Positions 3,396 to 59,101 of a stretch of DNA of 64,000 nucleotides are shown here, one piece after another. Source of the DNA: a virus; IMG/VR virus record IMGVR_UViG_3300046674_000532. One strand, given 5' to 3'. The position numbers and the translations under genes were made by a program. How positions within the stretch are numbered: position 1 is the first letter of the stretch; each line of letters opens with the position of its first letter. Below the pieces are notes generated by a model, which saw nothing but the letters and a program-made list of their open reading frames with translations, made no database searches and was not told where the DNA came from.

Positions 3396-3902
3396 TTATT
3401 CTCCGTTCTTTCGTGCCGCGTTCGCGGACAGGGTGATGAGGTGGCTGACCTGCGGGAATGTGCGGCCGGTGTGGTCGTTCCAGGCGTGGAAGGGTTCGTG
3501 GACGCCGTGTTCGCGCAGGGTCTGCTGCATGTAGTCGACGGCCCGCGCCCGGGCGGCGGGGGTGACGTGTCCGGTGTGTTCGAGGAGGGTCTGGGCGCCG
3601 CGGATGCACATCCGGCCGGTGGGGCTGAAGTCGAGGCTGCGGGCCCAGCCGTAGCGTTCCAGGACGGCCAATGTCTGGGCGAGGTGGTCGGAGGGGATGA
3701 GGGGGGTCGGGTTTTGCCACAGCCCCCACGCCTCGGCCAGGTTGCGGACGCCGCGCGGGACGAGCAGGTGCCAGCGCGTCGGCCAGTCCGGGGCGGCCGG
3801 CTGCGGGACCGGGGCGGGCCGGGTGGGGGCAGGCCGTGCGGGCGCCGCGGACGGGGTGGCCGTCCGCGAGGCCTGCGGGATGCGCGTGGGGGCGGTGCTC
3901 AT
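3396..3902 (-). CDS. hypothetical protein, Pro/Ala-rich N-terminus
   Basis: frame of track ORF 3396..3953; ATG 3902 has GGAAGGAA RBS; alt GTG 3953 overlapping upstream stop. Confidence 0.55.
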   Translation of the reverse strand: MSTAPTRIPQASRTATPSAAPARPAPTRPAPVPQPAAPDWPTRWHLLVPRGVRNLAEAWGLWQNPTPLIPSDHLAQTLAVLERYGWARSLDFSPTGRMCIRGAQTLLEHTGHVTPAARARAVDYMQQTLREHGVHEPFHAWNDHTGRTFPQVSHLITLSANAARKNGE

Positions 3903-3949
3903 GCGGAGTGTCGGTTCCTTCCGTGTCGGTGCCGACCGGTGGGTGACGG

Positions 3950-5128
3950 TCACGGGTTGCTACCGGTGACCTTGGTGTGGATCTCCTTGTAGAGGGCCCG
4001 AATGTCGTCGGTCTTGAGCCCGTAGCCGGACTTCCGCCAGGCCTGCTCGAAGGCGTTCTGGGAGGGAGCCGGGCCCGTGCCGCGGAGGTCGAAGTAGAGG
4101 TCGTAGGCGATCCTTCGGCGGTCGGGGTCGCCCTCGTCGTGCCTCTTGTTCGCCTGCGCCTCGCCGGGGTTCGCCTGGGGCGCGCCTTCGGTGGGCCCTG
4201 TGGTGCGCCCTGGTGCGCCCTCGCTGGTCAGAGCGCTTATGTCGTCGGGGCTGGCAGCCAGTGCGCCCTGGGGCCCGGTGGTGGGGCGCAGGGCGCGCAG
4301 GGTGTAGGCCTCGGCCCGGTCCGGGAGGGCTTTGAAGGCGCCCATGCGGTCGATGCGGGTGGTGATCTGCAGTTCGGAGCCGAGCTGGTCGAGGGTGTCG
4401 GTCAGGCCGTGGAAGGAGGCGTCGCCGGCGCGCATGAGGGCCTTCTCGTACTGGCGCTGGCCCATCCACCACGGCTTACCGAGCGTGGCGAGAGCGATGA
4501 CCTTGTCCTGGGCGTTGCGGCGGCTGATGGCCTCGGCGTCGGCGCCGCGGGAGCCGATCCCGAAGCGGGACTCGATCCGCTTGAGGCGGTCGCGCCACAG
4601 GCGGGCGATCATCCCGTCGGACTTGATCTCAATCTTGCCGAGCTTCGCTTCGAGGCCGAGGAGCTTGTGCAGGCCGTAGGCGAGCATCACCGGGCCGACG
4701 ATCCGGACGAGCGCGGTGCCGAGGTCCTCGTGCTCCTGGCGGACGACTTCGATGGCGCCGATCGCCTGGGCGAGGACGAGGACATACGCGGTGCGGGTGG
4801 CGCCCTTGTCGTTGAACGCCCAGGCGTACAGGGACAGGCCCAGGACGATGGCCTCGAGGACGAGGCCGACGGTCATGTTGTACGGCGACTCCATGTGGAG
4901 GCGCTTCTCGGCGAACCGGGCGGAGGTGTTGGTGGACAGGGCCAGGCCGGCGACGACGACCAGGCCCATGCCGAGGAACCCGGTGAGGGTGCGGCGCTTG
5001 TGGCTGTCGGCGCGACCGAACGTCTTGTGGGCGATCCGGTAGCCGAGGAAGAGGATGGGGAGGGCGAGCAGGACGGCCCATGCCTGGACGGGCACCTGCG
5101 CGACCGCGTTCTGCACTTGGGTGAGCAT
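3950..5128 (-). CDS. polytopic membrane protein, DUF2637/Spd-like (plasmid spread-type)
   Basis: ORF track 392 aa; 4-5 N-terminal TM helices then soluble tail; family resemblance from memory only. Confidence 0.5.
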   Translation of the reverse strand: MLTQVQNAVAQVPVQAWAVLLALPILFLGYRIAHKTFGRADSHKRRTLTGFLGMGLVVVAGLALSTNTSARFAEKRLHMESPYNMTVGLVLEAIVLGLSLYAWAFNDKGATRTAYVLVLAQAIGAIEVVRQEHEDLGTALVRIVGPVMLAYGLHKLLGLEAKLGKIEIKSDGMIARLWRDRLKRIESRFGIGSRGADAEAISRRNAQDKVIALATLGKPWWMGQRQYEKALMRAGDASFHGLTDTLDQLGSELQITTRIDRMGAFKALPDRAEAYTLRALRPTTGPQGALAASPDDISALTSEGAPGRTTGPTEGAPQANPGEAQANKRHDEGDPDRRRIAYDLYFDLRGTGPAPSQNAFEQAWRKSGYGLKTDDIRALYKEIHTKVTGSNP

Positions 5129-5146
5129 GGGCGGGTCCTTCCTGGG

Positions 5147-5284
5147 TCAGGCGGCGGGCGTGAGGTCGGCCTGCTGGGGCTGCGGGTGGGCTGCGGGGGC
5201 GGTGATGGCGAAGTACGCCTCGTACTCGTCGTCGTCCCAGCTGGCGGGGTCGCCGTGGCCTTCGCGGAACTCGATGCCGGTCAT
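5147..5284 (-). CDS. small acidic protein (45 aa)
   Basis: below track cutoff; ATG overlaps upstream stop (ATGA); MTGIEFREGHGDPASWDDDEYEAYF...; GC3-rich. Confidence 0.45.
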   Translation of the reverse strand: MTGIEFREGHGDPASWDDDEYEAYFAITAPAAHPQPQQADLTPAA

Positions 5285-5586
5285 CGGGCACCGCCGTGCT
5301 TGCTGTGGTCGGTGGCGTAGGAGCGGAGTCGGTCGAGTTCGGCGGGGCTGGTGTCCTTGGCGCGGATGCTGGCGTCGCAGCCCTTGGCCGGGCAGGTGTA
5401 GAGCACGGTGCGGGAGGCGTCGTCGAAGCGGATGGCGAGCATGAGGCCGACGGCGAGGGTGGACAGGACGGTCGACATGATCGCGGCGATGCCGACGTGG
5501 TGGTTGGCGAGCTGGATGGCGAGGCTGGCGGCCAGGCCGAGGGCAGTGGCGCCGGTGAGGGCGGCGAGGGCGGTGGGCTTCTTCAC
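5281..5586 (-). CDS. small two-TM membrane protein
   Basis: ORF track 101 aa; GTG start with GGAAGGAA RBS; two hydrophobic helices then CPAKGC. Confidence 0.6.
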   Translation of the reverse strand: MKKPTALAALTGATALGLAASLAIQLANHHVGIAAIMSTVLSTLAVGLMLAIRFDDASRTVLYTCPAKGCDASIRAKDTSPAELDRLRSYATDHSKHGGAR

Positions 5587-5635
5587 GTGCGGTTCCTTCC
5601 GTGAGCAGTGCGGGTGGGCGGGCGGTGGTTGGTGG

Positions 5636-5764
5636 TCAGGTGCGGCCGGTGCCGATGCAGGCGGCGCAGATGCCGCCGGGCCAGTTGTCGAACCAGCCGG
5701 AGCAGATGGAGCACTGGCCAGCGTTCGCGACCAGGTGCCACAGGCGGATCAGGTGCTTCTTCAC
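5636..5764 (-). CDS. Cys4 zinc-ribbon-like micro-protein (42 aa)
   Basis: below track cutoff; GTG 5764 with GGAAGGAG RBS; VKKHLIRLWHLVANAGQCSICSGWFDNWPGGICAACIGTGRT. Confidence 0.5.
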   Translation of the reverse strand: MKKHLIRLWHLVANAGQCSICSGWFDNWPGGICAACIGTGRT

Positions 5765-5812
5765 GGGGTGGTGCTCCTTCCGGTGGTGCTGGGCGGGTTG
5801 GTGGGTGGCCGG

Positions 5813-6106
5813 TCAGACCATCAGCCGGTACTCGTCGACGATTTCCGTGGTGTCGGCCAGAAGGCGGCCGGCCCGGTCGAGGAAGACGTCGCGGGCGGTG
5901 TCGCTGGTGGCCTGCTGCGCTTCGGTCAGATGCAGCACGGCGATCTCCAGCTCCTCCGCTCCGTTGATCTGGGCGAAGTTGGTGAGCCGATCAGCCGCGG
6001 TCTTGAGCTGGTCGATGAACTCGCCGGGGGTGGTGGCCGGCGGCTCCTCGGCGACGAAGGCCACGTCTTCGGCATGGAGGCGGATGAGGGAGTCGAAGCT
6101 GGGCAC
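5813..6106 (-). CDS. hypothetical helical protein
   Basis: frame of track ORF 5813..6169; GTG 6106 with GGAAGGAA RBS. Confidence 0.55.
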   Translation of the reverse strand: MPSFDSLIRLHAEDVAFVAEEPPATTPGEFIDQLKTAADRLTNFAQINGAEELEIAVLHLTEAQQATSDTARDVFLDRAGRLLADTTEIVDEYRLMV

Positions 6107-6255
6107 TGGGGGTCGGTTCCTTCCAGTCGTGCGGGACGGGGTGGGTGCTGGTCTGGGCTGGGGTCGCACCTCGTGGATGCGGCCTCGGGACGGGCCAGCG
6201 GGGGTGGGGTCCGGTCGCCGTGTCGGCTTCGGCGGCCGGACCCCGGTGGGGGTGG

Positions 6256-6378
6256 CTACTTGTTCTTGCCGGTGAGGTTGATGCGGACTCGGGGGGCGGG
6301 CTTCGGTGTCTTGGGGTCGGTGGTGGTGTCGCGGCCGTTGATGCGGACGCGGGAGGTCTTCTTGTCGCTGTTGGTCAT
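6256..6378 (-). CDS. basic micro-protein (40 aa) with duplicated RVRIN motif
   Basis: 3' end of track ORF 6256..6858 (rest is R-rich shadow); ATG 6378; MTNSDKKTSRVRINGRDTTTDPKTPKPAPRVRINLTGKNK. Confidence 0.4.
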   Translation of the reverse strand: MTNSDKKTSRVRINGRDTTTDPKTPKPAPRVRINLTGKNK

Positions 6379-6389
6379 GGCCGGGGCTC

Positions 6390-6794
6390 CTAGTCGGTGT
6401 GAATGGCGCCGCTGGCGTTGGCGGCGTGCTGGTGGAGGTGGCGGTCGGACAGGGCGAGGAGGAGGTGTTCCCCCGCCATCTGGGTGTGCTTCTGCGCGTC
6501 GAAGGTGAGGGTGCGGAGGGCGGGGTTGGAGTCGGGGTTCGTGAGCCGGACGACGAGGTGGCCGAGCGCGGTGAGGACGTCCGTACCGTCGGGGGATCCG
6601 GCGAGGGTGACGGCCAGGAGCTGCGTGGCTTCGAGGTTGTGCCGGTCCAGGGCGATCAGCCGAATTCCGTCGAGGATCAGGTCGATGCCGGGGTGAATGC
6701 CGGCCAGGTCCTCCATGACGCCCTCCAGCTCGGCGTCGAGCGGGGGGACGGCGTTGCCTGCGGTGTGCACGTGCGTGCGAGGGACAGTCGTCAT
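6390..6794 (-). CDS. hypothetical protein
   Basis: frame of track ORF 6390..7145; ATG 6794 overlaps upstream stop by 1 nt (TGATG); MTTVPRTHVHTAGNAV... Confidence 0.6.
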   Translation of the reverse strand: MTTVPRTHVHTAGNAVPPLDAELEGVMEDLAGIHPGIDLILDGIRLIALDRHNLEATQLLAVTLAGSPDGTDVLTALGHLVVRLTNPDSNPALRTLTFDAQKHTQMAGEHLLLALSDRHLHQHAANASGAIHTD

Positions 6795-7105
6795 CACGCC
6801 TGCCCGCCGTTCGCGATGTTCTCCAGCGCCTGCAGCATCTCGGTGACGTCGTTCGCATCGACCGGCGGCAGGGATACGGCGGTCAGGCCGGCTTCTTCCA
6901 TGTCGGCCTGGTAGGCGTTCAGGGAGACCATGTCGTCGGTGAGGGCTTCGACGGCCCTCGCGGACAGCAGCGCCTCCCCGACCAGGCGGCCGTCTCCCAG
7001 ACGGAGCGTCATGCGTACGGAAGTCGGGTCGCCTTCGGGGCTCAGCGCAGCAAGCTGGGCGACGAGCTCGATCGCCCGGAGTTCCTCGTTCGACAGCTCG
7101 GCCAT
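6794..7105 (-). CDS. hypothetical acidic protein
   Basis: ORF track 103 aa; start directly abuts upstream stop. Confidence 0.65.
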   Translation of the reverse strand: MAELSNEELRAIELVAQLAALSPEGDPTSVRMTLRLGDGRLVGEALLSARAVEALTDDMVSLNAYQADMEEAGLTAVSLPPVDANDVTEMLQALENIANGGQA

Positions 7106-7444
7106 CTAGGCCACCGCCTTCAGGACGCGGTCCGAGCCGGTCCACACGGCGCCCGTGTAGTGGTCGGTGCCGGTGTGGAGGTCGAGGACGTGGATGGCGA
7201 ACTGGGCGGAACGGCGGCGCAGGATCCGGCGGGCCTCGGACGTGTTGGTGACGACGTCCTGGACCTGGAACATGCCGGCCGCGTTGTCGTAGACGGTGCC
7301 GGGCTCACGCGGGCCGATCTGCTCGGCAACCACGCGGCGCAGGGCCTCGTCGGGGTCGTGGATGGTGGTGTTACTCGGCGCAGCCTGGTGGACGAAGTCA
7401 CCGGGGTGCGGTGCCATAGAAACGGTCGCTGTGCGATCCTTCAT
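7106..7444 (-). CDS. hypothetical protein, first gene of leftward operon
   Basis: frame of track ORF 7106..7954; ATG 7444 with AGGAGG RBS; upstream part of the ORF is low-GC3 non-coding. Confidence 0.6.
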   Translation of the reverse strand: MKDRTATVSMAPHPGDFVHQAAPSNTTIHDPDEALRRVVAEQIGPREPGTVYDNAAGMFQVQDVVTNTSEARRILRRRSAQFAIHVLDLHTGTDHYTGAVWTGSDRVLKAVA

Positions 7445-7661
7445 GAGGATCGACCTCCTGTTGTGGCAGGTAGGGCGGTTCCAAGTTCCTTCGTGGTGTT
7501 GCTGCACCACTCGGGACAGGCGGCCCCGGTCCGGCATTTGCTGGCCGGGGTCGTTTCGTTGTGCTGATACGAGAGTCCCGCACCTCATGGACTTTGTCAA
7601 CAAGGTGCGGCATGATGAGGGAGAAGCGTTGACCAACGAGGAACAGGAGGAGCCCCGCTTG

Positions 7662-7895
7662 ATGACCATTCCGGAGATCGCAGCGGACCGCGGTGTCAGT
7701 CGACAACTGGTCCACCGGATCGCGCAGTCGGACCCGGAGTTCCCTCCCCCCGTGATCGCGCCGGGAAGTACGCGGGCCAAGTACCCGTCCGACAAGGTCG
7801 CCGAGTTCTTCGCCAACCGGACCATCCGGCCAGGCCGGCGTACGGACCTGGAGACCAAGAGACCGGAGAAATCCGATGCGAGCGAGAAGGACTGA
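7662..7895 (+). CDS. small HTH DNA-binding protein (excisionase/MerR-like)
   Basis: frame of track ORF 7296..7895; ATG 7662 after AGGAGG; MTIPEIAADRGVSRQLVHRIAQSDPEFP... HTH pattern; divergent from leftward operon. Confidence 0.6.
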   Translation: MTIPEIAADRGVSRQLVHRIAQSDPEFPPPVIAPGSTRAKYPSDKVAEFFANRTIRPGRRTDLETKRPEKSDASEKD

Positions 7896-8093
7896 CTGGC
7901 CTGCTGCATCGGGTTCTCCTGGAGTCGACGATCTGCCTGACTCCATGCCAGCACTGGTCAGGGGCGCCGAAGTTGAGGCCGCTGTTGGCAACCGTGGCCA
8001 AAGGAATCTGCCAACAGGTCAGGTTCCGACATCGCGCCGCATAAGCGGCATCACGCACTCCCGTTCGGATCGGAGAGGAGGAACACTCGCCGC

Positions 8094-9299
8094 ATGACGA
8101 CCTTCCCGGAGCTGCTTCGCGTCCTGCGTATGGACGCCGGTATGTCGCTGGCCACGCTGGCGAAGCAGGTGCACTACGACCGCACGTCCCTGCATCACTT
8201 CGAGTCCGGCAGACGTCCGGCACCGCTCGAGGTCGCCGAGGCTGCGGACGAAGTGCTGCGCGCGGACGGCCGGCTGGTCGGAGCGTGGACCCGGGAGGAC
8301 GAAGCACGGCGGGAGGCTGCCGCTACGCACAGGGTGCGGGCTGCTGCTCTGGCCATGTCGCGGGATCTGACCGCGCTGGCGGACCTGGACATCTCGGAGT
8401 TGCAGGACGGGGTGGCCGTGACCGCGGTCGACTACCTGGCTTCTCCCCCCGGTCCGATGATGGACCGGGCGCACGTGCTGCGCGGTGAGGCGTTCGAGCG
8501 GATCAGGTCGGGGCATCACCGGCCTGCGGACCGTTCGGACCTGTACGTGGCCGCTGGACGGTTGTCCGGGGTGCTGTCGTACGCGCTGCTCGACATGGGC
8601 GACTCGGAAGAGGCGCTCGAGCACGCCACCGCGGCGGGCCGGTGCGCCGAGTTCGCCGGGGATGCCGAGCTGTCGGCGTGGGTGGCGGGCACGAAGTCGC
8701 TGATCGCCCGGTTCCAGGGCGACTACGGGCACGCGCTCGACTACGTACGCGACGGATACCAGTGGGTGGGGTCCGGGCAGGGAACCGGCGAGGCGCGCCT
8801 GCGCTGCGGTGAGGCCCAGTGCCTGGCCAACCTCGGCGACAGCAGGGCCGCGAACCAGGCCCTGGACGGCGCCGAAGCCGCGCGGGAGCGGATCCGCCGA
8901 CCGGACACCCTGGAGGGCCTGTTCGGGTTCTCGAGGGCGAAACAGTCCTACTACGCCGGGTCTTCACTGATCTGGCTGCAGGGCGGCCACGACGCGGAGC
9001 GTGCAGCGCGGGAAGCCCTCGAGGCGATCGGCCTGTGGCAGTCCGGGCCGGTGGAGGAGCGGTCCCTGGATGACGAGCGCCTCGCGTTTATTTACCTAGC
9101 GACGGCGCGGGTGCAACTCGACGACGTCGAGGGTGCGGCCGAAGCCCTGGCGCCGGTCCTGTCGTTGCCAGTGGAAGACCAGATTTCGTGGATCGTGAAG
9201 CGCATGGATCGTGTGGCGGGGATGCTCAGCGCACCTCGGTATGCGGGGAACCGTACGGCTTCCGAGACTGTCGAGAAGATCAACGCCCTCGCGGCGTGA
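8094..9299 (+). CDS. XRE-family HTH regulator with C-terminal TPR-like helical domain
   Basis: ORF track 401 aa; N-terminal LRVLRMDAGMSLATLAKQVHYDRTSLHHFESGRR is a classic XRE HTH; helical repeat C-terminus. Confidence 0.8.
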   Translation: MTTFPELLRVLRMDAGMSLATLAKQVHYDRTSLHHFESGRRPAPLEVAEAADEVLRADGRLVGAWTREDEARREAAATHRVRAAALAMSRDLTALADLDISELQDGVAVTAVDYLASPPGPMMDRAHVLRGEAFERIRSGHHRPADRSDLYVAAGRLSGVLSYALLDMGDSEEALEHATAAGRCAEFAGDAELSAWVAGTKSLIARFQGDYGHALDYVRDGYQWVGSGQGTGEARLRCGEAQCLANLGDSRAANQALDGAEAARERIRRPDTLEGLFGFSRAKQSYYAGSSLIWLQGGHDAERAAREALEAIGLWQSGPVEERSLDDERLAFIYLATARVQLDDVEGAAEALAPVLSLPVEDQISWIVKRMDRVAGMLSAPRYAGNRTASETVEKINALAA

Positions 9300-9501
9300 C
9301 GGAAGGAGAGTTCCAGGTGCGTAGCCCGCCCTGAACAGCAGAGACGGCCGACCAGGCGTGAGCCTGTCGACCGCCTCCACGCCGGCGTACTGCGAATACG
9401 TCCCGGCTGCACAGATCGCCCACTTGATGGAAGGACCCGTACGTGTCGACCCTAGCGAAAACTTCGAGAACATCGAAGTTCAGGGGCCCCGGTGATAGCC
9501 G

Positions 9502-9762
9502 GTGACCCACCAGAACCCCCCTGTCTTCGTCACCTTCACAACCGGCGCGCAACTGCTCATCGACGAAGGCCTGGTCGAGAGCATCACGCCCGACGGCCTC
9601 AGGTACATCGCCCGCAAGGACGATGCCTGGCCGTTCGGTGACGGACAGGGCCAGCACCCGTACGTGATGGTCGGCAACGCCCGGACCATGGAGACGGGTG
9701 TCTTCCTGGACTTCTTCAAGGCGGGGCCGTCACGCGGCGGCCGCGGGCCGAACAAGTCCTAG
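9502..9762 (+). CDS. hypothetical protein
   Basis: ORF track 86 aa; GTG start; consistently G/C third positions. Confidence 0.55.
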   Translation: MTHQNPPVFVTFTTGAQLLIDEGLVESITPDGLRYIARKDDAWPFGDGQGQHPYVMVGNARTMETGVFLDFFKAGPSRGGRGPNKS

Positions 9763-22318: not shown

Positions 22319-22696
22319 GTGCCCGAACAGCCCTGCCCGTTCTGCGAGATCAACACCGGTCGCGCGCCCGCCAAGTTCGTGGCCGAGTGGTCCGACGCAA
22401 TCGCGATCGTCCCGCACAACCCCGTGGTCGTCGGACACACCCTGATCATTCCCAAGACCCACGTCACCGACTTCGCGGACGACCCCGAGGTAACCGGAGC
22501 GACCGTGCGACGGGCAGCGCAACTCTGCCGCGACCTCGACCTGGTCCACGCCAACCTCATCACCAGCAAGGGCGTGCACGCCACGCAGTCCGTGTTCCAC
22601 CTTCACGTTCACCTCGTTCCTCGAGCGGCGAACGACGGCCTGGCCCTGCCCTGGTACAGCGGCCGCAGCAGCAAGACCACGGAGGGAACCCGATGA
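22319..22696 (+). CDS. HIT-family (histidine triad) nucleotide hydrolase/transferase
   Basis: frame of track ORF 21923..22696; GTG 22319; CPFC zinc motif and HLHVHLVP histidine triad. Confidence 0.8.
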   Translation: MPEQPCPFCEINTGRAPAKFVAEWSDAIAIVPHNPVVVGHTLIIPKTHVTDFADDPEVTGATVRRAAQLCRDLDLVHANLITSKGVHATQSVFHLHVHLVPRAANDGLALPWYSGRSSKTTEGTR

Positions 22697-23260: not shown

Positions 23261-24046
23261 GTGGTGATGATCAATGGGCGGGAGTACTGGAGCACCCGCA
23301 CCCCGACCAAGACCGGCTTCGCCGTCGCCTTCCCCCGCACAAACCCACGCCGCGCCGAGCCCGCAACCACAGCCCAACGACGCCGAGACGACCGCATCGC
23401 CGACCGGATGCAGGATGAGCGGATCGTCACCCTGGAGGCAGGCACGCTGGTGGTCTTCCAGCGGTCCGCGTATCGCGTGGTGGAGGTCCGGGAGATCCCG
23501 CCGGACCTGTGGGGCGAGAAGTGGGACCAGGCCTTCGAGAAGGAACTGGGCCGATGGGACTCCTGGAAGCTGGACGCCCACCCGTTGGACAAGCGCCCGT
23601 GGGGCGACCGGCCCACAGCGGAGACGTGGCGGGACAGGCCCGTCAGCGTCGTCCTGCGACCCGACCCTGACGGTCAGGCCGCCGTCTCCACCGTGACGCT
23701 CGCCTGGGGCGCCCCGGAGGCCTGCGACACCGTGTCCACGGAGGCGCTGTCGTCGACGCCGTGGTCGGGGGACAGGGCGAACTTGTACGCGAGCGCGGGC
23801 AGTGACTCCGCCCCGAACAGGCTCTTCAGCCGCTCGAGGTGCCGGGTCAGTGTCCGCACCCCGAACCCGAGCCGGGACGCGGTCGCGGTCTGGGGGCGGC
23901 CGGCGACCATGTCCCGCAGTATCTCCCGGTCCAGCCGTGTCGTCCGCACCTCGCACGCCGCGACGGGCGCCGTATCCGGTATGCGGGGCTCCCCCGACCA
24001 AGGGCGGGCCTGGTGCCAGATGTCGGCGTACACGCGGGCCATGTAG
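23261..24046 (+). CDS. hypothetical protein; last about 370 nt lie antisense to the LuxR-type gene
   Basis: ORF track 261 aa; starts 2 nt after upstream stop; N-terminal 135 aa look like a normal W/K/E/F-containing protein; no stop before 24046. Confidence 0.5.
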   Translation: MVMINGREYWSTRTPTKTGFAVAFPRTNPRRAEPATTAQRRRDDRIADRMQDERIVTLEAGTLVVFQRSAYRVVEVREIPPDLWGEKWDQAFEKELGRWDSWKLDAHPLDKRPWGDRPTAETWRDRPVSVVLRPDPDGQAAVSTVTLAWGAPEACDTVSTEALSSTPWSGDRANLYASAGSDSAPNRLFSRSRCRVSVRTPNPSRDAVAVWGRPATMSRSISRSSRVVRTSHAATGAVSGMRGSPDQGRAWCQMSAYTRAM

Positions 24047-24777
24047 GCGACGACCGCCCGGTCCGTGACATGCCACGCCGCATGAGCAGCGGAGCCTTCG
24101 ACCACATAGTCGGAGATGAATGCGTGCCGCCGGTCCACGATGATGATCCGCTCAAAGGGTGCGAGGAGCGTCCGGTACTCGGCTCCCTCCGCGGCCATCG
24201 TCCGCGCCCACTCCTGCGTCACCTCATCGTCCCGGACGGTGTCCCGGTACAGGGTCTGGCACCGGATCCCGCGCCGTAAAGCGTCGGTGTCCCGGCGGAC
24301 CGCGGTCAGCATGTTGGCCCGCGAGCGGGGGCCGTTGGGCTGCGCCGACAGGATCTCCGAACGTGCCGCACCGACCACGTCCTGGATCCGGGCGTTGACC
24401 GTCTCCGGATCGGGAAGGAACTGCGCACCGCCGGAGGAACGTTCCGCCGACCTTTCGAACTCCACCGACAACTGGTCCTGCACCGCCGGGAGTGCGGCGA
24501 TCTGCGCCAGCCTCGATGCGGCGGCCGCCAACTGCGCCGCCGTGTGCCGGGCCATCGCCGGCCCCGGCTCCAACGCCACCCACACCTCAGGATGATCCGC
24601 ATCCCGGACCACCAGACCCAGCGCCTGGAGCTTCGCCAACTCCGGGCCCCGGCCCCACTCCTCGCCCCCCAGCCCCTCACACCGGGCGATCCGCCCATAC
24701 AGGCGCACCTCGGCACCCGTCAGAAACGAATCCAGCCCCTCCATGCCTGTCTGGGCAGGCGTGTTGCCCGATCTCAT
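23674..24777 (-). CDS. LuxR-family transcriptional regulator with about 290-aa N-terminal sensor/winged-helix region
   Basis: frame of track ORF 23674..24831; C-terminal LDREILRDMVAGRPQTATASRLGFGVRTLTRHLERLKSLFG is a LuxR/GerE HTH; ATG 24777 (GGGGGA upstream) preferred, alt 24744 or 24831. Confidence 0.7.
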   Translation of the reverse strand: MRSGNTPAQTGMEGLDSFLTGAEVRLYGRIARCEGLGGEEWGRGPELAKLQALGLVVRDADHPEVWVALEPGPAMARHTAAQLAAAASRLAQIAALPAVQDQLSVEFERSAERSSGGAQFLPDPETVNARIQDVVGAARSEILSAQPNGPRSRANMLTAVRRDTDALRRGIRCQTLYRDTVRDDEVTQEWARTMAAEGAEYRTLLAPFERIIIVDRRHAFISDYVVEGSAAHAAWHVTDRAVVAYMARVYADIWHQARPWSGEPRIPDTAPVAACEVRTTRLDREILRDMVAGRPQTATASRLGFGVRTLTRHLERLKSLFGAESLPALAYKFALSPDHGVDDSASVDTVSQASGAPQASVTVETAA

Positions 24778-25033
24778 CCTTGAATGTCCCCCGACAGTCG
24801 TGGCGTATGAGCGCCAGGCGTGTATACGCAAGCCCTGATGGTTGAGAGTTGTAACTCCGATACGAAAGGCTACCTGCGGGGCGCCCCCCTGACGCCCGTA
24901 CGACAGATCCTTCCCTCACACCCCATGCGTCTACTGCCAGAACCGCATCCGGTATGGGGATCGCAGCAGGATCCGGAGCACGGCACCCAGGGACGGCGCC
25001 CCAAAACCTTCCCAGCGTTGAAGGGACACGACC

Positions 25034-25279
25034 GTGAAGCCTCGCCCACGCTCTCGCCGTCTGCGCCGCGCCCTCGCCGGCCTCACCCTTACCCTCACCC
25101 TCGCCGCAGGCGCCGTCCTCACCGGCGGCAGCATCCTCACCCCAGCCTCCGGCACCGCCTGGGGTGCCCCCGGCACCGACGACACCGCCTGGGGAACCCC
25201 GCCCACCGACGAACCCGACCCGGGCACCGGCGACGACGGCAGCCCGGCCATCACCCCCTTCGACACCGCCTGGGGCTGA
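25034..25279 (+). CDS. secreted small protein with three (D/G)TAWG repeats
   Basis: ORF track 81 aa; GTG with GAAGGGA RBS; basic n-region RSRRLRRAL plus hydrophobic core LTLTLTLAAGAVL plus PASG; TAWG at predicted mature N-terminus, internally, and as the last 4 residues; exact DNA 12-mer CACCGCCTGGGG x3. Confidence 0.6.
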   Translation: MKPRPRSRRLRRALAGLTLTLTLAAGAVLTGGSILTPASGTAWGAPGTDDTAWGTPPTDEPDPGTGDDGSPAITPFDTAWG

Positions 25280-25302
25280 CCGACCCGGCCCCCGCACGGA
25301 CC

Positions 25303-25336
25303 GGCCCGGCAGCGCGCCCCCAGCGCCTGCCGGGCC
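25303..25336 (+). terminator. stem-loop after the secreted-peptide gene
   Basis: GGCCCGGCAG / CTGCCGGGCC perfect 10-bp stem, 14-nt loop, followed by TTCGT. Confidence 0.6.
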
Positions 25337-25386: not shown

Positions 25387-25830
25387 ATGGCCCCTTCCCC
25401 CAGCCCCAAGCGCCCCGCCGAGGAATCCAACCTCGTCGCCCACGCACGCCGCGAACTCCGCATCATCGGCGAAGACTCCGACACCATCACCGGCCTGTGC
25501 CGCGTCATCCGCGCCTTCGCCGACATGGGGCACTCCGGGAGCAGCGCCCACTTCGCCAGCCTCTACCTCGACAAGCTCCTGCGCTACCAGCCGCTCTCCG
25601 AACTCACCGACGACCCCGCCGAGTGGATCGACCGGCACGCCGAGGGCTTGACGCCCACTCCGCTCTGGCAGTCCCACCGGAACCCAGAAGCCTTCTCCTC
25701 CAACGGCGGCAAGACGTACTACCTGCTCTCCGAGCAGGAAGCGGCTGGGAACATCGCCACGACGCCTCTTCACCGCTCCAAGTCCGCAGACCTTCCTGCC
25801 GAGTCGGACGAGCCGGCGGACGACGTCTGA
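25387..25830 (+). CDS. hypothetical protein
   Basis: frame of track ORF 24820..25830; ATG 25387; MAPSPSPKRPAEESNLVAHARRELRIIGED... Confidence 0.6.
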   Translation: MAPSPSPKRPAEESNLVAHARRELRIIGEDSDTITGLCRVIRAFADMGHSGSSAHFASLYLDKLLRYQPLSELTDDPAEWIDRHAEGLTPTPLWQSHRNPEAFSSNGGKTYYLLSEQEAAGNIATTPLHRSKSADLPAESDEPADDV

Positions 25831-26693: not shown

Positions 26694-27347
26694 TCACTGC
26701 CGGTACGGCGGAAGAACCTGCGCCACCCGCGACGCCAGCGCCTTCTTCGCCGCCCTGGACCGGGCCGTCGGCGCCCCCCTCAGCACCGGTACGAGCACCT
26801 CAGAACCCAGCACGTGCACCAGTCCGGCCCGGCCCGCCACACTGGCCTGCAACCGACCGCCCGCCACCGGAGACCCGTACACCACCAGGACCGGCCACAC
26901 CGCCCCCTCCGGCAGCCCCAACAGCTTGGCCACCGTCCCCGCATACCGGGCCACCTTCTCCACCTCCCCATGCCGGTCCTCGCCACCGCAGTGAACCCGG
27001 CCGGCCACCACACGGGTCGGCCATGACCGACGCCACGCCTTCGTGTCCAGCACCACGACCGCGGTCCCGCACGGGGAGACGAGGACGTGGTCCAGGTTCG
27101 CGCGTCCGTGGCCCGGTAATCGCCGGTCGTGGAGGACCCGCCAGCCGTGCCAGCGCAGCCGACGTAACCGGCGGGCCGTCTCCCGCTCCGCCTTGGCGCC
27201 GCGGTCCCAGCGGGCCGCCACAGCGTCCGCACGCACCGCATCCGGGTTCATCCCCGCCCAGGCCGTGACACGCCGCCACAGGCCCCGCCGGGCGCGCGCA
27301 CGGATCGCCGCAGCCTCCCGCGCCGCCGACCCACCAGCCGCCGTCAC
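26694..27347 (-). CDS. NERD-domain nuclease-like protein
   Basis: frame of track ORF 26694..27461; GTG 27347 (GTGA overlap); AERETARRLRRLRWHGWRVLHDRRLPGHGRANLDHVLVSPCGTAVVVLDTKAW matches the NERD pattern. Confidence 0.7.
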   Translation of the reverse strand: MTAAGGSAAREAAAIRARARRGLWRRVTAWAGMNPDAVRADAVAARWDRGAKAERETARRLRRLRWHGWRVLHDRRLPGHGRANLDHVLVSPCGTAVVVLDTKAWRRSWPTRVVAGRVHCGGEDRHGEVEKVARYAGTVAKLLGLPEGAVWPVLVVYGSPVAGGRLQASVAGRAGLVHVLGSEVLVPVLRGAPTARSRAAKKALASRVAQVLPPYRQ

Positions 27348-42724: not shown

Positions 42725-43828
42725 CTATACCGAGGGAACCTCCAGTCCAGCGCTGTCCGCGTACTCGTTCATCACACGCAGCGCCTTCACAAACGCACCC
42801 GTCGGCATCTTCCGGATGAGGTGCTGTGCAACGAAGTTCCCGTCGTCGTAGGGCAGGGTCCGCGGCGCAGGGTCCCCGCCGTCCTCGGCCTGCTGGACGG
42901 TCCGCGGTTCAGGGATCGGCTGCTCCGCCAGCACCACCGCGGGCGCATGGAGGTCCGGTGCGGTCTCCGGGACCGGAGCAGGGCCCGGCATCGGATCGGC
43001 ACCTGCTGGCTTGGACTTGGAGACGTCCGGAATTATCACGCCGTGATATTCGGCGGGCCCGGCCGAGCGTTCCGGCGCCGGGTATGGCGCGGGTTGCGGC
43101 GAAGCCGACCGGGCGGCCGCCTGGCTTTGAGCGGCTTCGGCGCGCGCGTCGGCCTTCTCAACCTGCTCCTGCGGGGTCAGCTTCCCGAGGTTGCGGACGT
43201 GCTCCACCCTGCGTGCACCGGTGACGAGGTCCTTCTGCAGCTCGGGGGTGAGCTTCAGCAGGGACAGCTTGGTGGAGAGCGTGGCCTGCGGGATCCCGAG
43301 CCGTTTCGCGGCCTTGAGCTGGGACCCGTAGTGGTCCACCAACTGCTTGAGCGCGTGGGCCTCCTCGAGGTCCGTCATGTCGTCGCGGTGGTAATTCGCG
43401 ATGAACGCGGCCTCGAGGAGGGTCTCGTCGGTGGCCAGCCGCGAGTTGTCGACCCTGACCGGGATGGTGGCCAGTCCGACGCGGCGGGAGGCCTCGAGGC
43501 GTCGGTGGCCGTCGATGACGACGTACTGGGCTCCGTCGTCGATGTCGTCGGCGCGGGCGGCCCGGTCACGGAGATAGGCCTCTGTCGTTCCGACGACGAT
43601 GGGCAGGATGATGCCGACCTGGCGGACGGACTCCACGGTCTCGTCGAGGTTGCGGAGGTGGTTGCGCGGGTTGTCGGGGTTGTCGCTGATCAGCGTGACG
43701 GGCAGTTCGGTGATGGCCGCGGTCGCTGCCGCGTCCCCTCCTATGGCGCTGTTGATGGCGTCGCGCCGTGGGCTGCGCCGGGCCGCGGCGAAGGCGGGCG
43801 CCGGGCCGAGGGTGTCGGCCTTGCTCAT
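42725..43828 (-). CDS. parB: ParB/Spo0J-type partition protein
   Basis: ORF track 367 aa; LISDNPDNPRNHL, VVIDGHRRLEASRRVGLATIPV and the HTH region are canonical ParB boxes; start overlaps parA stop. Confidence 0.9.
   Translation of the reverse strand: MSKADTLGPAPAFAAARRSPRRDAINSAIGGDAAATAAITELPVTLISDNPDNPRNHLRNLDETVESVRQVGIILPIVVGTTEAYLRDRAARADDIDDGAQYVVIDGHRRLEASRRVGLATIPVRVDNSRLATDETLLEAAFIANYHRDDMTDLEEAHALKQLVDHYGSQLKAAKRLGIPQATLSTKLSLLKLTPELQKDLVTGARRVEHVRNLGKLTPQEQVEKADARAEAAQSQAAARSASPQPAPYPAPERSAGPAEYHGVIIPDVSKSKPAGADPMPGPAPVPETAPDLHAPAVVLAEQPIPEPRTVQQAEDGGDPAPRTLPYDDGNFVAQHLIRKMPTGAFVKALRVMNEYADSAGLEVPSV
43031..43050. repeat. parS-like palindrome copy 1 (inside parB 3' region)
   Basis: AATTATCACGCCGTGATATT; core TATCACGSCGTGATA. 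Confidence 0.55.
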
Positions 43829-44988
43829 CGGGTGGCCCCCTTCGCGACCTGCCGCATGGCCTCCGCCTGGTCGGACAGGGGTGCGTACGACAGCAGCGGC
43901 ATCCGCTTGCGGACCGCTTCCCGCTGTTCCTTCAGATCACCGATGACGGCCAGGACTCTCGGGTCACCGATGGCCTTCCAGCTATCCAGGGAGGAGGTGG
44001 CGACGTAACCGCGGCGCGAGTCGTACAAATTGACGACCAGGCCGAGGTAGTCGACGTCCAGGCTGAGGTCTTCGCACAGGGCTTCGATCTGCTGGTCGAG
44101 CATGCTGTACGCGGTGGCGGAGGAGTCCTCGGCGAGGACGGGAATGATGACGCCGGACTTGCCCTTGGCCTCGTTGCGGCGGCGGCGCGCGTAGTAGAGG
44201 GCGGCGTCCATGGCGATGCCGAGGCTGGGCGGGCAGTCCACGACGATGACGTCGTAGTCGGCCTCGAGGGGACGAAGTGCCATCTCCAGGGCGACTTCCT
44301 TCTGGAAGCCTCGCTTGTTCGCGGACAGGACGGCGATCCTCGAGTCGAGGAGGAATCCGTCGAAGCAGGCGGGCAGTACGTGCAGTCGCTTCTCGAACCG
44401 CGGATCGTCTATGACCACGACCAGGTCGCGGAGGTCTCCCTTGTCCTCGCCGCACATGTGGGAGACGAGGCTGTCGTGGTCGGGTGCGATCTGCAGGACA
44501 CCGAGTTGCTCGCTGAGGTGGCCTTGCGGGTCGTAGTCGACGAGCAGGACGCGCTTGCCCTGCTCGGCGTACGCCTGGGCGACGCCGGCGGAGATGGCGG
44601 TCTTGCCGACGCCGCCCTTCTGGTTGCAGACGACCTTGCGTTCGGCTTCTTCGTCCTGGGCGCCGTGCTGCGGGGAAGGGTTGGCGTCCAGCCACATCCG
44701 GACCGACTGCGCGAGGCCCTGGGTGTAGGAGACGGAGCGTTCGGTGCAGGCGTCCTTGAACGCGTCGTACTGGCCGGACGGGAGCCATGTGGAGAACGAG
44801 CGGGCGCCGGCCGTGTCGATGTCCGGGCTGATGCCGGGTTCGGCGCGCCATTGGGCGATGCCCGCGGTGACGGCGTCCTGGATGTCCAGGCCGAGCTCGG
44901 CGGCGCGGACCTTGAGTGCTTGTTGGAGCGCCGAGGGCAGCTTCGACGCTACCTTTTCCCGGTCTCCTTGGAGATATGGAGAGGCCAT
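43825..44988 (-). CDS. parA: ParA partition ATPase with about 125-aa N-terminal extension
   Basis: ORF track 387 aa; deviant Walker A VVCNQKGGVGKTA, LLVDYDPQGH. Confidence 0.9.
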   Translation of the reverse strand: MASPYLQGDREKVASKLPSALQQALKVRAAELGLDIQDAVTAGIAQWRAEPGISPDIDTAGARSFSTWLPSGQYDAFKDACTERSVSYTQGLAQSVRMWLDANPSPQHGAQDEEAERKVVCNQKGGVGKTAISAGVAQAYAEQGKRVLLVDYDPQGHLSEQLGVLQIAPDHDSLVSHMCGEDKGDLRDLVVVIDDPRFEKRLHVLPACFDGFLLDSRIAVLSANKRGFQKEVALEMALRPLEADYDVIVVDCPPSLGIAMDAALYYARRRRNEAKGKSGVIIPVLAEDSSATAYSMLDQQIEALCEDLSLDVDYLGLVVNLYDSRRGYVATSSLDSWKAIGDPRVLAVIGDLKEQREAVRKRMPLLSYAPLSDQAEAMRQVAKGATR

Positions 44989-56989: not shown

Positions 56990-57958
56990 ATGCTCATTTC
57001 GCCCCGCCCGGGCACCGACCGGGACAACCTCCTCCAGACCCTGCGGTCCGTGCACACCAGCGCCTCCAACGAGCACGGCCGCGGCTACGACAACGCCTAC
57101 AAGCGGCTGCTGGGATATCTGGAGTGGGCGATGGGCGCAGCCCGGCTGCTGCGCAACCAGATCAGCACCGAGGACCTGCACGCCTTGGTACTGACGAAGG
57201 GCCACGACACCCTGCTGAACGGCATCGGCGACCTCGAGGGTTCACGACGGGAACGCCTGGTGAACCTGCTTGTCGACCAAGAACTCGCCGAGCGCACCGA
57301 GGCACTCGAGGCCACAGTCAACCTGCTCCAATCACTGAGGCACCGCTGGCCAGGACACGAACGGTTCGTTGTCGCCGACCCCAGCTTCTACATCCAGAAC
57401 GAGATCAAGCTGGCCGACGTCGACCTGCACCAGGTGCTCGGCATCCGGGAAGAGGCCTTCATCCGGCTGCTGTTCCCCATCGTGGTGGTCGACGAGCTCG
57501 ACGGGCTGAAGGACGCGGGCAAGCCGCGGCCCCGGTGGAGGGCAGCCCACACACTCGGCCTCCTCGACGGGGTCCTGAACGGCGACACCGAAGGTGTTCT
57601 GCACCCCGGAACCTACGACCCCAGCAACGGGGAGACCCTGGGTAAAGTCATCGTGGAAATCGTCCTCGATCCTCCCGGGCATGTCCGCCTACCGCTGGCC
57701 GACGACGAGATCGTCGACCGGGCGGTCGTCCTCCAAGCCCTCGGCGGCCGCGACGTACGTCTGCTGACGTGCGACACCAGCCAGCACACCCGCGGCTGCG
57801 CGGCCGGCCTGCAGGTGACGAAGGTCGCGACGAAAGACCCCGGCCCCGAGCCCGACTGGGAGGCCGAGGGCAAGCCGGGGACCGGCGTACGGGCGCAGCG
57901 CCGCGCCAGGCAGGAAGCCAGGAACGGCAGTTCCGCCGAGGCGCCCGCGAACTCATGA
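56990..57958 (+). CDS. PIN-domain nuclease-like protein with N-terminal helical domain
   Basis: ORF track 322 aa; acidic PIN residues in VVADPSFY, VVVDELDGLK, ADDEIVDRA, LLTCDTS; DELDGLK resembles YlaK/PhoH-associated PIN domains. Confidence 0.6.
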   Translation: MLISPRPGTDRDNLLQTLRSVHTSASNEHGRGYDNAYKRLLGYLEWAMGAARLLRNQISTEDLHALVLTKGHDTLLNGIGDLEGSRRERLVNLLVDQELAERTEALEATVNLLQSLRHRWPGHERFVVADPSFYIQNEIKLADVDLHQVLGIREEAFIRLLFPIVVVDELDGLKDAGKPRPRWRAAHTLGLLDGVLNGDTEGVLHPGTYDPSNGETLGKVIVEIVLDPPGHVRLPLADDEIVDRAVVLQALGGRDVRLLTCDTSQHTRGCAAGLQVTKVATKDPGPEPDWEAEGKPGTGVRAQRRARQEARNGSSAEAPANS

Positions 57959-59101
57959 CCCGGCAGGCCCGGCCTCCTTGACGGCTGCCTTCCCGATCTG
58001 CGCGAGCGGGTTGTTCTCGCCCTGGGCGTCGTCCTCGTCTACGTAGCCGATCAGCGCTTTGGACTGGTCGTCCCAGCCGCCGTGCCGGCCGATCTGCACG
58101 ATGTCGACGCCCGCGGTCCGGGCCGACTTCACGAAGCCGCGGCGGGAGGAGTGGGAGCGCCACCGGCCCGGCAGCCCGGTCCGCTCGATGGACCGCTGGA
58201 TGACGTCGGAGGCGGCCTCGGTCGTCAGCCGTCCGTCCTCGGCGCCGATAGGCTCACCGCCACGCTGCATCTCCGGGTTGAGGTAGCCCCAGCGGTCCAT
58301 GCGCAGGAACAGGGGGCCCACGGTGTGTCCGTTGTCGGCGAGGGCGGCAACCAGGGCGCGGACCGCGCGGACGGCGCACAGGTCGGGTTCGGGGTCGAGC
58401 GGAATGTCGGGGGTCTGCCACATCTTGCGCTTCTTGCGGTAGACGCGGACCTGCAGACCGCCGTCGGGGAGATCGGTGAAGCTGTCCGGCCAGTTCAGCG
58501 GCACGAGTTCGCTGCCGCGCGAGGCCAGCGCGTGACCGAGCAGCATCAGGGCGGCGTCCCGCTTCCCTGCCAGGGTGGTGCGGTCCAGCTCACCGAGCGC
58601 GGTGCGCAGGACGGTCCGGTCGGCGGGGCTCGCCTTCTGCGGGCGGGCGGCCGGGTCCTGGGCGAGGGCGAGCTGCTCGCGGTAGCCGGCCACGACCTTC
58701 CGGGCGCCCATGGTGTCCGGGGGCCGGTACCCGGCGGCCCGGTGGGAGGAGCGGATGGACGCGATGACGCGGTCCATCGTGTTCGGTCCGTACGGGCGTC
58801 CGGTGCGCGGCCGCGGAGTGCGCTTCAGGTAGGAGAGGTACTCGGTGACGGTCTGCGGCGCAGCCGGCAGCGGGCGGCGGCCGACGGACAGGCACCATGC
58901 GGTGAAGCGGTCCATGTCGCCCTTGTACGCCTTGGTGGTCTCCTCCGGGATTCCGGCCTTGACATCCTGCTGGGCTTCCTCGGACAGCCAGGCGTCCGGG
59001 TCCTCTTCCGTCAACGGGACGGCGGGGGCCCGGTCTTCGGGGATGGCGGGCAGCCGGTCGTCGACCAGCTCCGCGTCGACCACCTCGTCGCGCATGCTCA
59101 C
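57953..59101 (-). CDS. tyrosine recombinase/integrase, Cre-like
   Basis: ORF track 382 aa; ASRGSEL (Arg I), SHSSRRGF (HxxR), HGGW, IGYVDE (Tyr); N-terminal KAYKGDMDRFTAWC...VTEYLSYL. Confidence 0.8.
   Translation of the reverse strand: MSMRDEVVDAELVDDRLPAIPEDRAPAVPLTEEDPDAWLSEEAQQDVKAGIPEETTKAYKGDMDRFTAWCLSVGRRPLPAAPQTVTEYLSYLKRTPRPRTGRPYGPNTMDRVIASIRSSHRAAGYRPPDTMGARKVVAGYREQLALAQDPAARPQKASPADRTVLRTALGELDRTTLAGKRDAALMLLGHALASRGSELVPLNWPDSFTDLPDGGLQVRVYRKKRKMWQTPDIPLDPEPDLCAVRAVRALVAALADNGHTVGPLFLRMDRWGYLNPEMQRGGEPIGAEDGRLTTEAASDVIQRSIERTGLPGRWRSHSSRRGFVKSARTAGVDIVQIGRHGGWDDQSKALIGYVDEDDAQGENNPLAQIGKAAVKEAGPAGS

Follow-up and report, generated by a model that had tools for sequence, protein, structure and literature searches.

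The closest described relatives of the locus considered here are the arbitrium system (AimR-AimP-AimX) of Bacillus SPbeta-like phages and the other RRNPP systems, in which a small propeptide gene adjoins the gene of a cytoplasmic partner with a tetratricopeptide-repeat (TPR) receptor domain. To our knowledge, peptide quorum sensing with cytoplasmic receptors, and its use by phages in lysis and dormancy, has so far been a matter of Firmicutes and of TPR receptors. Among the enzyme-made signals of actinobacteria are the gamma-butyrolactones. Enzyme-made small molecules are indeed the typical signals of Actinomycetota, and propeptide signals belong to the Bacillota (2023 survey, PMC10075063). A stretch of 64,000 nucleotides from the IMG/VR virus record IMGVR_UViG_3300046674_000532 (the window, meaning the whole stretch that was analysed) carries an 81-aa propeptide gene beside a divergently transcribed regulator gene, and the two may well form a self-contained cassette of a peptide signal and its cognate cytoplasmic receptor (probability about 0.55). 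Judged from sequence comparison alone, the pair appears to be the first signalling system of actinobacteria whose peptide is encoded by a gene. Literature searches returned no arbitrium-like system in Streptomyces, no TrmB-LuxR peptide receptor and no DTAWG signalling motif, the four matches to the last being beta-lactamase peptides and an acronym. The two genes are:

25034..25279, + strand: propeptide gene, 81 aa, GTG start; signal peptide followed by an acidic, Pro-rich region with three pentapeptide copies
23674..24744, - strand: regulator gene, 356 aa; 100% identical to P0023 over 356 aa; the longest open reading frame (ORF) extends to TTG 24831

The likeness to arbitrium and RRNPP systems extends to several features, including a temperate mobile element, an adjacent small propeptide gene whose short peptide is C-terminal in most loci, a cytoplasmic DNA-binding partner, a peptide that varies between related elements, and an operator-like site beside a non-coding RNA element. 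In its apparent mode of action the system resembles arbitrium, Rap-Phr and the rest of the RRNPP group. It is nevertheless not a member of that group, since the regulator has no TPR receptor domain and instead combines a TrmB/PLD-like (phospholipase D-like) protein with a LuxR-type helix-turn-helix (HTH). Further differences are an actinobacterial host, a divergent gene order, an RNA element located 5' of the peptide ORF, and precursors with several copies of the motif. In Rap-Phr of Bacillus, similarly, one exported precursor may hold several mature pentapeptide copies, and mixed precursors look like intermediates in signal divergence, as the mixed Ala/Gly precursors do here (loci L021, L023, L054, L081); a repeat model of Rap-Phr was reportedly set out by Even-Tov et al. 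in 2016. Raps, however, are TPR proteins that act mostly by protein-protein interaction, whereas the present protein is a one-component DNA-binding regulator of another fold.

Three further families bear on the comparison. The archaeal sugar sensors TrmB and TrmBL2 share, by fold, the N-terminal winged helix, the long dimerisation helix and the PLD-like domain, but here a LuxR/GerE HTH replaces the sugar barrel, the proposed ligand is a peptide, and the family is bacterial and partly phage-borne. LuxR, TraR, RhlR and the LuxR solos share the C-terminal four-helix GerE-type HTH and a palindromic site upstream of a divergent promoter; unlike them, the regulator lacks an autoinducer-binding domain, and the signal would be encoded by a gene and not made by a synthase. 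In Streptomyces itself, ramR and amfR place a LuxR-type HTH regulator beside a small peptide precursor gene, much as in this pair, and SapB needs the RamC lanthionine synthetase and the RamAB exporters. However, in contrast to ramR-ramCSAB and amfR-amfS, no RamC- or RamAB-like genes lie near the present pair, and RamR is a response regulator and not TrmB-like. Peptide communication cassettes on mobile elements are of a known kind; new here would be the receptor architecture, the phylum, the multi-copy precursors and the associated structured RNA.

The propeptide and the regulator

Genes in the window were called by G+C content at third codon positions (GC3), many of the long ORFs in this high-GC DNA being wrong-frame artefacts. 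Both the 81-aa gene and the 356-aa divergent regulator were also called by the independent Joint Genome Institute (JGI) gene caller on identical metagenome contigs. Within and behind the propeptide gene lie the following features:

25151..25165, + strand: pentapeptide copy 1, GTAWG (G40-G44), directly after the small-residue site PASG
25181..25195, + strand: pentapeptide copy 2, DTAWG (D50-G54), followed by TPP
25262..25276, + strand: pentapeptide copy 3, DTAWG (D77-G81), at the extreme C-terminus with the stop codon next
25303..25336, + strand: G+C-rich, terminator-like hairpin whose 10-nt arms (25303-25312 and 25327-25336) are perfectly complementary

A first-pass annotation of the window, which proposed a candidate peptide-signalling module at this place, had credited the propeptide gene with its own ribosome-binding site (RBS), a basic n-region, a hydrophobic core and a PASG cleavage-like site in its product, a 12-mer identical in three copies, and a strong terminator. 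Most of this description was borne out. A purine-rich, RBS-like GAAGGGA occupies 25020-25026, 8 nt 5' of the GTG start. The product, MKPRPRSRRLRRALAGLTLTLTLAAGAVLTGGSILTPASGTAWGAPGTDDTAWGTPPTDEPDPGTGDDGSPAITPFDTAWG, has a basic N-terminus (KPRPRSRRLRR), a hydrophobic stretch of ~20 residues and then PASG, after which an acidic, Pro-rich tail carries GTAWG, DTAWG and a terminal DTAWG directly before the stop. The 12-mer CACCGCCTGGGG occurs exactly three times in 64 kb (25153, 25183, 25264), always within this gene, where 0.06 occurrences would be expected, and none of 100 shuffles reached three. Of the repeats, the internal and terminal DTAWG stand, but the first copy is GTAWG and not DTAWG. 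The hairpin at 25303-25336 is real (fold of -40.2 kcal/mol, z = -3.8); it has no T-run, which is why a consensus terminator scan made no call there. Given this hairpin, the peptide gene is likely a stand-alone transcription unit, and 31 of 47 loci have a comparably stable structure (z < -2) 3' of their peptide gene.

A sequence search with the peptide yielded 22 homologues (68-86 aa), unannotated without exception and confined to Streptomyces and metagenomes; searches of Pfam, PHROGs and NCBIfam gave no match. Only the three DTAWG blocks are invariant in the alignment of these homologues (mean column identity 46%), the linkers between them differ in both sequence and length, and every member ends in DTAWG and a stop. 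Synonymous codons are used inside the motif (GCC, GCA and GCG for Ala; GGC, GGA, GGT and GGG for Gly; ACC, ACG and ACA for Thr; mean GC3 of the ORFs 0.83), and conservation therefore operates at the protein level. Copy 3 is the only pentapeptide copy found in all family members. Copy 1 reads D-T-x-W-G in relatives, often behind an A-x-A signal-peptidase-like site. The basic n-region with its ~20-residue hydrophobic core, a putative export signal, is also present in ~75 related loci; the n-region is SRRLRRAL in the window protein, with RR in many relatives and a single Arg in several (RLARVL, RLCRVL).

As for the regulator, the first-pass annotation had placed a LuxR-family protein with a large N-terminal ligand or sensor region 256 bp away. 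A divergent ORF (23674..24831, - strand) does exist. Its likely start is ATG 24744, as in P0023, and the intergenic gap is consequently 289 bp instead of the 256 bp that an ATG at 24777 would give. The protein by itself has no Pfam match at E <= 0.01, and PHROGs and NCBIfam offered nothing useful; a match to TIGR03541 is weak (E 0.046) and limited to the HTH (residues 298-343). A family profile, on the other hand, detects a LuxR/GerE HTH at positions 269-325 (RhlR, NarL and FixJ at E 4e-5 to 2e-4), PF00196 is annotated in several relatives, and some relatives are labelled TrmB by their sources. In an AlphaFold2 model built from 30 homologues (pLDDT, the predicted local distance difference test, of 78), the first ~260 residues matched, by Foldseek, TrmBL2 (5bpd, E 9e-11), TrmB (3qph, 5.5e-9), the nuclease Nuc (1byr, 1.4e-7), the sugar-binding domain of TrmB (2f5t, 1.7e-5) and the PLD-fold proteins NucT and Zucchini, 6ehi among the matches.

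In the modelled architecture a TrmB-like winged helix is followed by a long coiled-coil helix and then by a PLD-like domain, with a LuxR/GerE-type HTH at the C-terminus. The earlier description needs refining here, in that the protein is TrmB/PLD-like with a LuxR-type HTH and no classical LuxR. No N-terminal autoinducer-binding domain and no TPR domain were found by Pfam or by fold, the former in a region of 260 residues that is TrmB/PLD-like, the latter in a structure that matches TrmBL2, TrmB and PLD-fold proteins instead. The C-terminal sugar-binding barrel of TrmB is likewise absent, residues 276-340 forming a helical LuxR-type HTH; as modelled, this is a one-component regulator in which a second DNA-binding domain has replaced the TrmB sugar barrel. 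The catalytic motif HxK(x)4D is absent from the family alignment, where the conserved stretch is H-A-A-W-H-V-T-D with no Lys, and by that alignment the PLD-like domain is catalytically dead. If the modelled regulator has a ligand site, this domain is the obvious place for it. The TrmB subdomain that matches it is said, after Krug et al. in 2006, to carry most of the sugar contacts.

Conserved pairing and co-variation

Whether the two genes belong together was judged on loci collected through the regulator and not through the peptide (46 loci from species-representative genomes, 16 from viral contigs and 43 from metagenomes); counts for the Streptomyces clade refer to unique regulators for which 650 nt or more of upstream sequence was available. 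A divergent small ORF with a signal peptide and 1-4 copies of D-x-x-W-x accompanies 51 of the 56 unique Streptomyces-clade regulators, the exceptions being a chromosomal subclade (L007-L010) and L017. In a Kitasatospora-like chromosomal set, at ~30% regulator identity, the peptide gene is present in 24 of 27; there it is convergent and immediately downstream of the regulator, as opposed to the divergent order on phage-plasmids. The regulator family as a whole comprises 313 representative clusters at E <= 1e-30 in a profile search, and of five more distant regulators sampled from it three have a peptide:

P0122, on a Streptomyces chromosome: peptide ...ADTAWISP...LLDTAW-stop
P0127: peptide with DSTW four times
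P0140: peptide ...PLDTYWGI-stop

An adjacency that survives rearrangement and the move between phage-plasmid and chromosome is strong evidence that both genes work together. The gene downstream of the peptide gene is variable across 47 loci. Neither the Pfam families of neighbouring genes in four contexts nor the chromosomal neighbourhoods examined yielded a modifying enzyme or any other conserved partner near the pair. The fallback offered with the first-pass annotation, in which the peptide gene is a surface-protein gene or a moron unrelated to the regulator, fits poorly with a pair that occurs on chromosomes, conserves only a short motif in its peptide and has no conserved gene downstream.

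Two side observations concern these loci. The subclade L007-L010 (~3650-4550, - strand) has neither peptide gene nor leader RNA, and a 290-aa XRE-type HTH gene stands upstream instead. The Kitasatospora chromosomal pair lies directly behind dnaK-grpE-dnaJ-hspR (L028, L035 and L037, ~4900-9300 in each) and is followed by a conserved 188-208-aa protein, unassigned in its 208-aa version, and by one to three tandem regulator paralogues without peptides of their own.

In the paired, putatively secreted small ORFs a motif copy usually ends the protein, and across loci the Asp (rarely Glu) and the Trp are fixed and positions 2, 3 and 5 vary. The versions found were:

DTAWG: 19 unique loci
DTTWG: 16 unique loci, plus the frameshifted L006
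DTIWN: 6 unique loci
DTGWG: 5 unique loci
DTWWG: 5 unique loci
DSTWG, DSTW, DLIWT, DISWT, D/EHQWT, DWEWQ, DSAWP and others: 1-2 unique loci each

The same core stands in every copy in 50 of 64 multi-copy precursors. Among the 14 counted as mixed, three are artefacts of the regular expression (L026 and L105, with DDTWWG, and L019, mixed only at residue 4), which leaves ~11 truly mixed precursors; most of these combine the Ala and Gly versions, and the mixed Ala/Gly precursors accompany regulators from a region of the tree in which the two types alternate. Variation from locus to locus with uniform copies within each precursor resembles pherotypes, and is how signalling variants evolving by repeat duplication would look. 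Similarly, the protein ends with the last motif copy in most loci (one residue follows it in L083 and L237), and the first copy in Kitasatospora sits directly behind a canonical ASA signal-peptidase site; such placement, C-terminal and behind a signal site, would be expected if the short motif were a functional unit released from a carrier, and is reminiscent of Phr and AimP precursors. In L006 (~4449-4700, - strand; Streptomyces sp. NPDC046862) DTTWG appears twice before the sequence goes out of frame, and its terminal DTTWG-stop is visible in another frame, which is a frameshift or an assembly error. The Kitasatospora loci L043 (6091-6327, - strand) and L048 (1120-1398, - strand) repeat the motif as DSGWP or DSAWP.

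The regulator varies along with the peptide. Residues are numbered on the 367-aa form of the regulator. Across 42 pairs of the Streptomyces clade, mutual information with peptide residue 3 is highest for columns 158, 155 and 159, all in helix 153-168 of the PLD-like domain. The residues concerned, and the states seen with the different peptides, are:

24214..24234, - strand: codons for residues 155-161 (NMLTAVR), N-terminal part of helix 153-168; candidate specificity positions
DTTWG, 16 regulators: Arg158 and Ser159 in 16/16, Gln155 in 15/16
DTAWG, 17 regulators: Leu155 in 14/17, mostly hydrophobic at 158, Ala159 in all
DTWWG, lineage L060/L076 inside the DTTWG clade: positions 155, 158 and 159 all changed
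DTWWG of L019/L026 and DTWWT of L102, in separate clades: Lys158

In a nearest-pair test, position 158 ranks first of ~350 columns: it differs in 10 of the 14 sister pairs whose peptides differ and in 2 of the 19 that share a peptide (uncorrected p = 5e-4). A later prediction held: the remote regulator P0127, far outside the DTTWG clade and paired with DSTW, has Arg158-Ser159. The same two residues occur in the DSTWG-paired regulator and go with peptide Thr in two separate lineages, and P0122, paired with DTAW, has Ile158-Ala159. The pentapeptide thus varies by locus and the regulator positions 155, 158 and 159 track its third residue, a pattern that suggests direct recognition of the peptide by the regulator. 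Co-inheritance and co-variation in relatives were the two computational checks proposed with the first-pass annotation; both turned out positive, and they support the candidate peptide-signalling module.

The intergenic region and its leader RNA

An alignment of 51 intergenic regions reveals DNA that is more conserved than the flanking proteins. Its features in the window are:

24802..24830, no strand assigned: two tandem 14-bp palindromes, GGCG-N6-CGCC and GGCG-N6-CGCA, separated by one base; candidate operator
24842..24867, + strand: promoter-like blocks TTGAGA (24842-24847) and TACGAAA (24861-24867) in conserved columns; family consensus GTTGA ... TACGGCA
24878..25002, + strand: structured leader RNA upstream of the peptide ORF, its outer helix pairing GGGGCG (24878-24883) with CGCCCC (24997-25002)
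24906-24911 with 24968-24973, + strand: leader helix P2, GAUCCU with AGGAUC
24931-24940, + strand: conserved loop CUACUGCCAG of a leader hairpin with a variable stem
24960-24967, + strand: invariant bulge of the leader, AUCGCAGC

The tandem palindromes have one match in the 64-kb window and are conserved in ~50 loci, where the family consensus is TGCG-N6-CGCA twice; the half-sites shift with the regulator clade, being GGCG/CGCC in the clade of the window and TGCG/CGCA elsewhere. Because a tandem palindrome suits a dimeric HTH protein, the site is a candidate operator, and by its sequence it is likely that of the adjacent regulator. Conserved promoter-like blocks are present on both strands of the intergenic region. 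The assignment of promoters to them is put forward with caution, since a sigma-70 consensus scan finds nothing there.

The leader, seen in ~50 loci, has blocks that keep 80-100% conservation even between loci with regulators of only 40-60% identity. The pairs of its outer helix P1 are invariant. P2 (AUCCU/AGGAU), as recovered by anchored extraction, exhibits compensatory changes among A-U, G-C, C-G and U-A types and also G-U pairs, which fix the strand of the RNA. Per-sequence folding forms the hairpin in 38 of 38 sequences, whose arms come in 34 distinct versions; cognate arms give more stable folds than swapped ones (-10.7 vs -7.9 kcal/mol, p = 7e-8). RNAalifold on a MAFFT alignment returned invariant pairs only and missed the variable stem, because its arms are misaligned. 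The CUGC of the loop is complementary to UCGCAGC in the invariant bulge, which suggests a pseudoknot. No Rfam family matches 24878-25002; the RNA may be a riboswitch-like leader or a small RNA, and is a candidate new structured RNA in its own right. A collection-wide scan for the pattern ACTGCCAG-N10-40-TCGCAGC was tried as a leader finder and abandoned as far too unspecific (120 unrelated matches).

Readings of the locus and its surroundings

We infer the export, processing, import and binding of the peptide, the direction of regulation and the biological output of the cassette along the following lines. The 81-aa product would be exported through its signal peptide and its disordered mature part cut, releasing a short D-T-A-W-G peptide. 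One cut would free the C-terminal copy and one the copy next to the signal-peptidase site, and two would be needed for the internal copy; one precursor could therefore yield up to three signal molecules. The peptide would accumulate with the density of cells carrying the element and be taken up again, presumably through a BldK/Opp-type oligopeptide permease of the host, a kind of system that exists in Streptomyces. Inside the cell it would bind the PLD-like domain, where residues around 155-159 would read its variable third residue. The regulator would bind the tandem palindromes at 24802-24830 between both genes, and ligand binding would alter their occupancy and with it transcription of the leader-propeptide transcript and of the regulator itself. 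The leader RNA might either gate propeptide expression or be the downstream effector, as aimX is for arbitrium.

Several observations weigh against such a peptide-receptor cassette. The locus has no linked protease, transporter or permease, and the regulator carries two DNA-binding domains. Beyond the last motif copy 7-10 residues follow in L043 and L048, and a simple rule of C-terminal peptides is consequently not valid everywhere. Two of the five distant family members, on elements with ParB, recombinase or integrase, have no such peptide, so the family as a whole is not tied to peptides. Within the co-variation itself, the position-158 statistic fails correction for ~350 columns, and the different-peptide pairs it compares are more diverged than the same-peptide pairs (0.31 vs 0.20). 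Further, the Trp lineage L060/L076 has Ala/Gly and not Lys at 158, and the Gly-class regulator L070 resembles the Ala class. Finally, DTAWG is common to regulators that are only 40-60% identical, and discrimination between elements would accordingly be coarse.

The alternative that survives best, although an unlikely one, is that the regulator only controls the peptide gene and that the peptide is a secreted effector and not the regulator's ligand, for instance a multivalent short-motif decoy for a host surface or extracellular target that blocks adsorption of competing phages or some host process, with a motif varied by an arms race with the target. The signal peptide would suit such an effector, as would the repeated short motifs in a mature part that is disordered, acidic and Pro-rich, and the accessory region adjoining the anti-defence gene Tad3; divergent regulator-target pairs are common, and a DTAWG kept across quite diverged regulators is no embarrassment to it. 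The pair, however, also resides on Kitasatospora and Streptomyces chromosomes, outside phage contexts, and the existence of single-copy precursors means that multivalency is not required. An effector model, moreover, makes no prediction that positions 155, 158 and 159 should follow the variable peptide residue, which they do, also in independent lineages.

Rather less probable still is an extracellular signal that is sensed by a host membrane sensor or by a receptor encoded elsewhere, the adjacent regulator setting the amount of signal. The anatomy of the locus would be the same as for a cytoplasmic peptide receptor, the lack of a linked import system would be readily accommodated, and the PLD-like domain could have some other small molecule as its ligand, like the sugars of TrmB; but no sensor kinase or membrane receptor is conserved beside the pair in the contexts examined, and the co-variation of regulator and peptide speaks for direct recognition. 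A multi-core precursor of a ribosomally synthesized and post-translationally modified peptide, for example one with modified Trp, whose product is an antibiotic or morphogen under a pathway-specific regulator as with ramR/ramS for SapB, would account for a precursor that repeats a short core with invariant Trp and for a LuxR-type regulator adjoining a small precursor gene. It is most improbable, however, given an ordinary export signal in place of a leader for a modifying enzyme, and given that neither on phage-plasmids nor on chromosomes does the pair have a modifying enzyme, a dedicated protease or an exporter as a conserved neighbour.

If the pair is indeed a peptide signal with its receptor, peptide communication arose independently in a second phylum, and a new fold joins the peptide-binding regulators. 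Orthogonal peptide-regulator pairs (DTAWG, DTTWG, DTGWG, DTWWG and others) might then serve as tools for antibiotic-producing Streptomyces, and the sensing of host or lysogen density by actinophages would be directly testable with synthetic pentapeptides. A larger claim is tentative, with the odds leaning somewhat against it in full: that loci of this kind form a new class among gene-encoded peptide communication systems, without precedent in Actinomycetota and their phages, which uses a TrmB/PLD-like ligand domain fused to a LuxR-type HTH in place of TPR, precursors with 1-4 copies of D-x-x-W-x, specificity at residues 155-159, and an undescribed riboswitch-like leader that is maybe the effector.

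The element that carries the window looks like a Streptomyces phage-plasmid of ~90 kb. The regulator's relatives are for the most part on 85-97-kb contigs, and IMG/VR lists many of these as viral. Megablast of the region returned no phage record; one weak, short DNA match, in the Tad3 gene, is to an 85-kb linear plasmid of Streptomyces californicus. The genes that bear on the nature of the element, and the one that directly follows the peptide gene, are:

42725-44988, - strand: ParB-like and ParA-like partition genes
57953-59101, - strand: tyrosine integrase
61072-62322, - strand: virion structural protein
25387-25830, + strand: Tad3 homologue, an inhibitor of type I Thoeris (PF25185, E 1.6e-30), directly after the peptide gene

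Tad3 was considered as part of the module and rejected: it stands behind the peptide gene in no more than 10 of 47 loci and is for that reason a neighbour and not a component. Elsewhere in the window, a gene at 8094-9299 (+ strand) encodes a 401-aa protein whose combination of an XRE-type HTH (HTH_31, E 1e-12) with TPR repeats recalls RRNPP receptors; the 86-aa ORF behind it (9502-9762) was entertained as a second propeptide and discarded, having no signal peptide. The module itself is flanked on its left by a HIT-family protein (22319-22696, + strand; PF01230 in the precomputed annotation of an identical contig) and on its right by a NERD-domain protein (26694-27221, - strand; E 8e-14).

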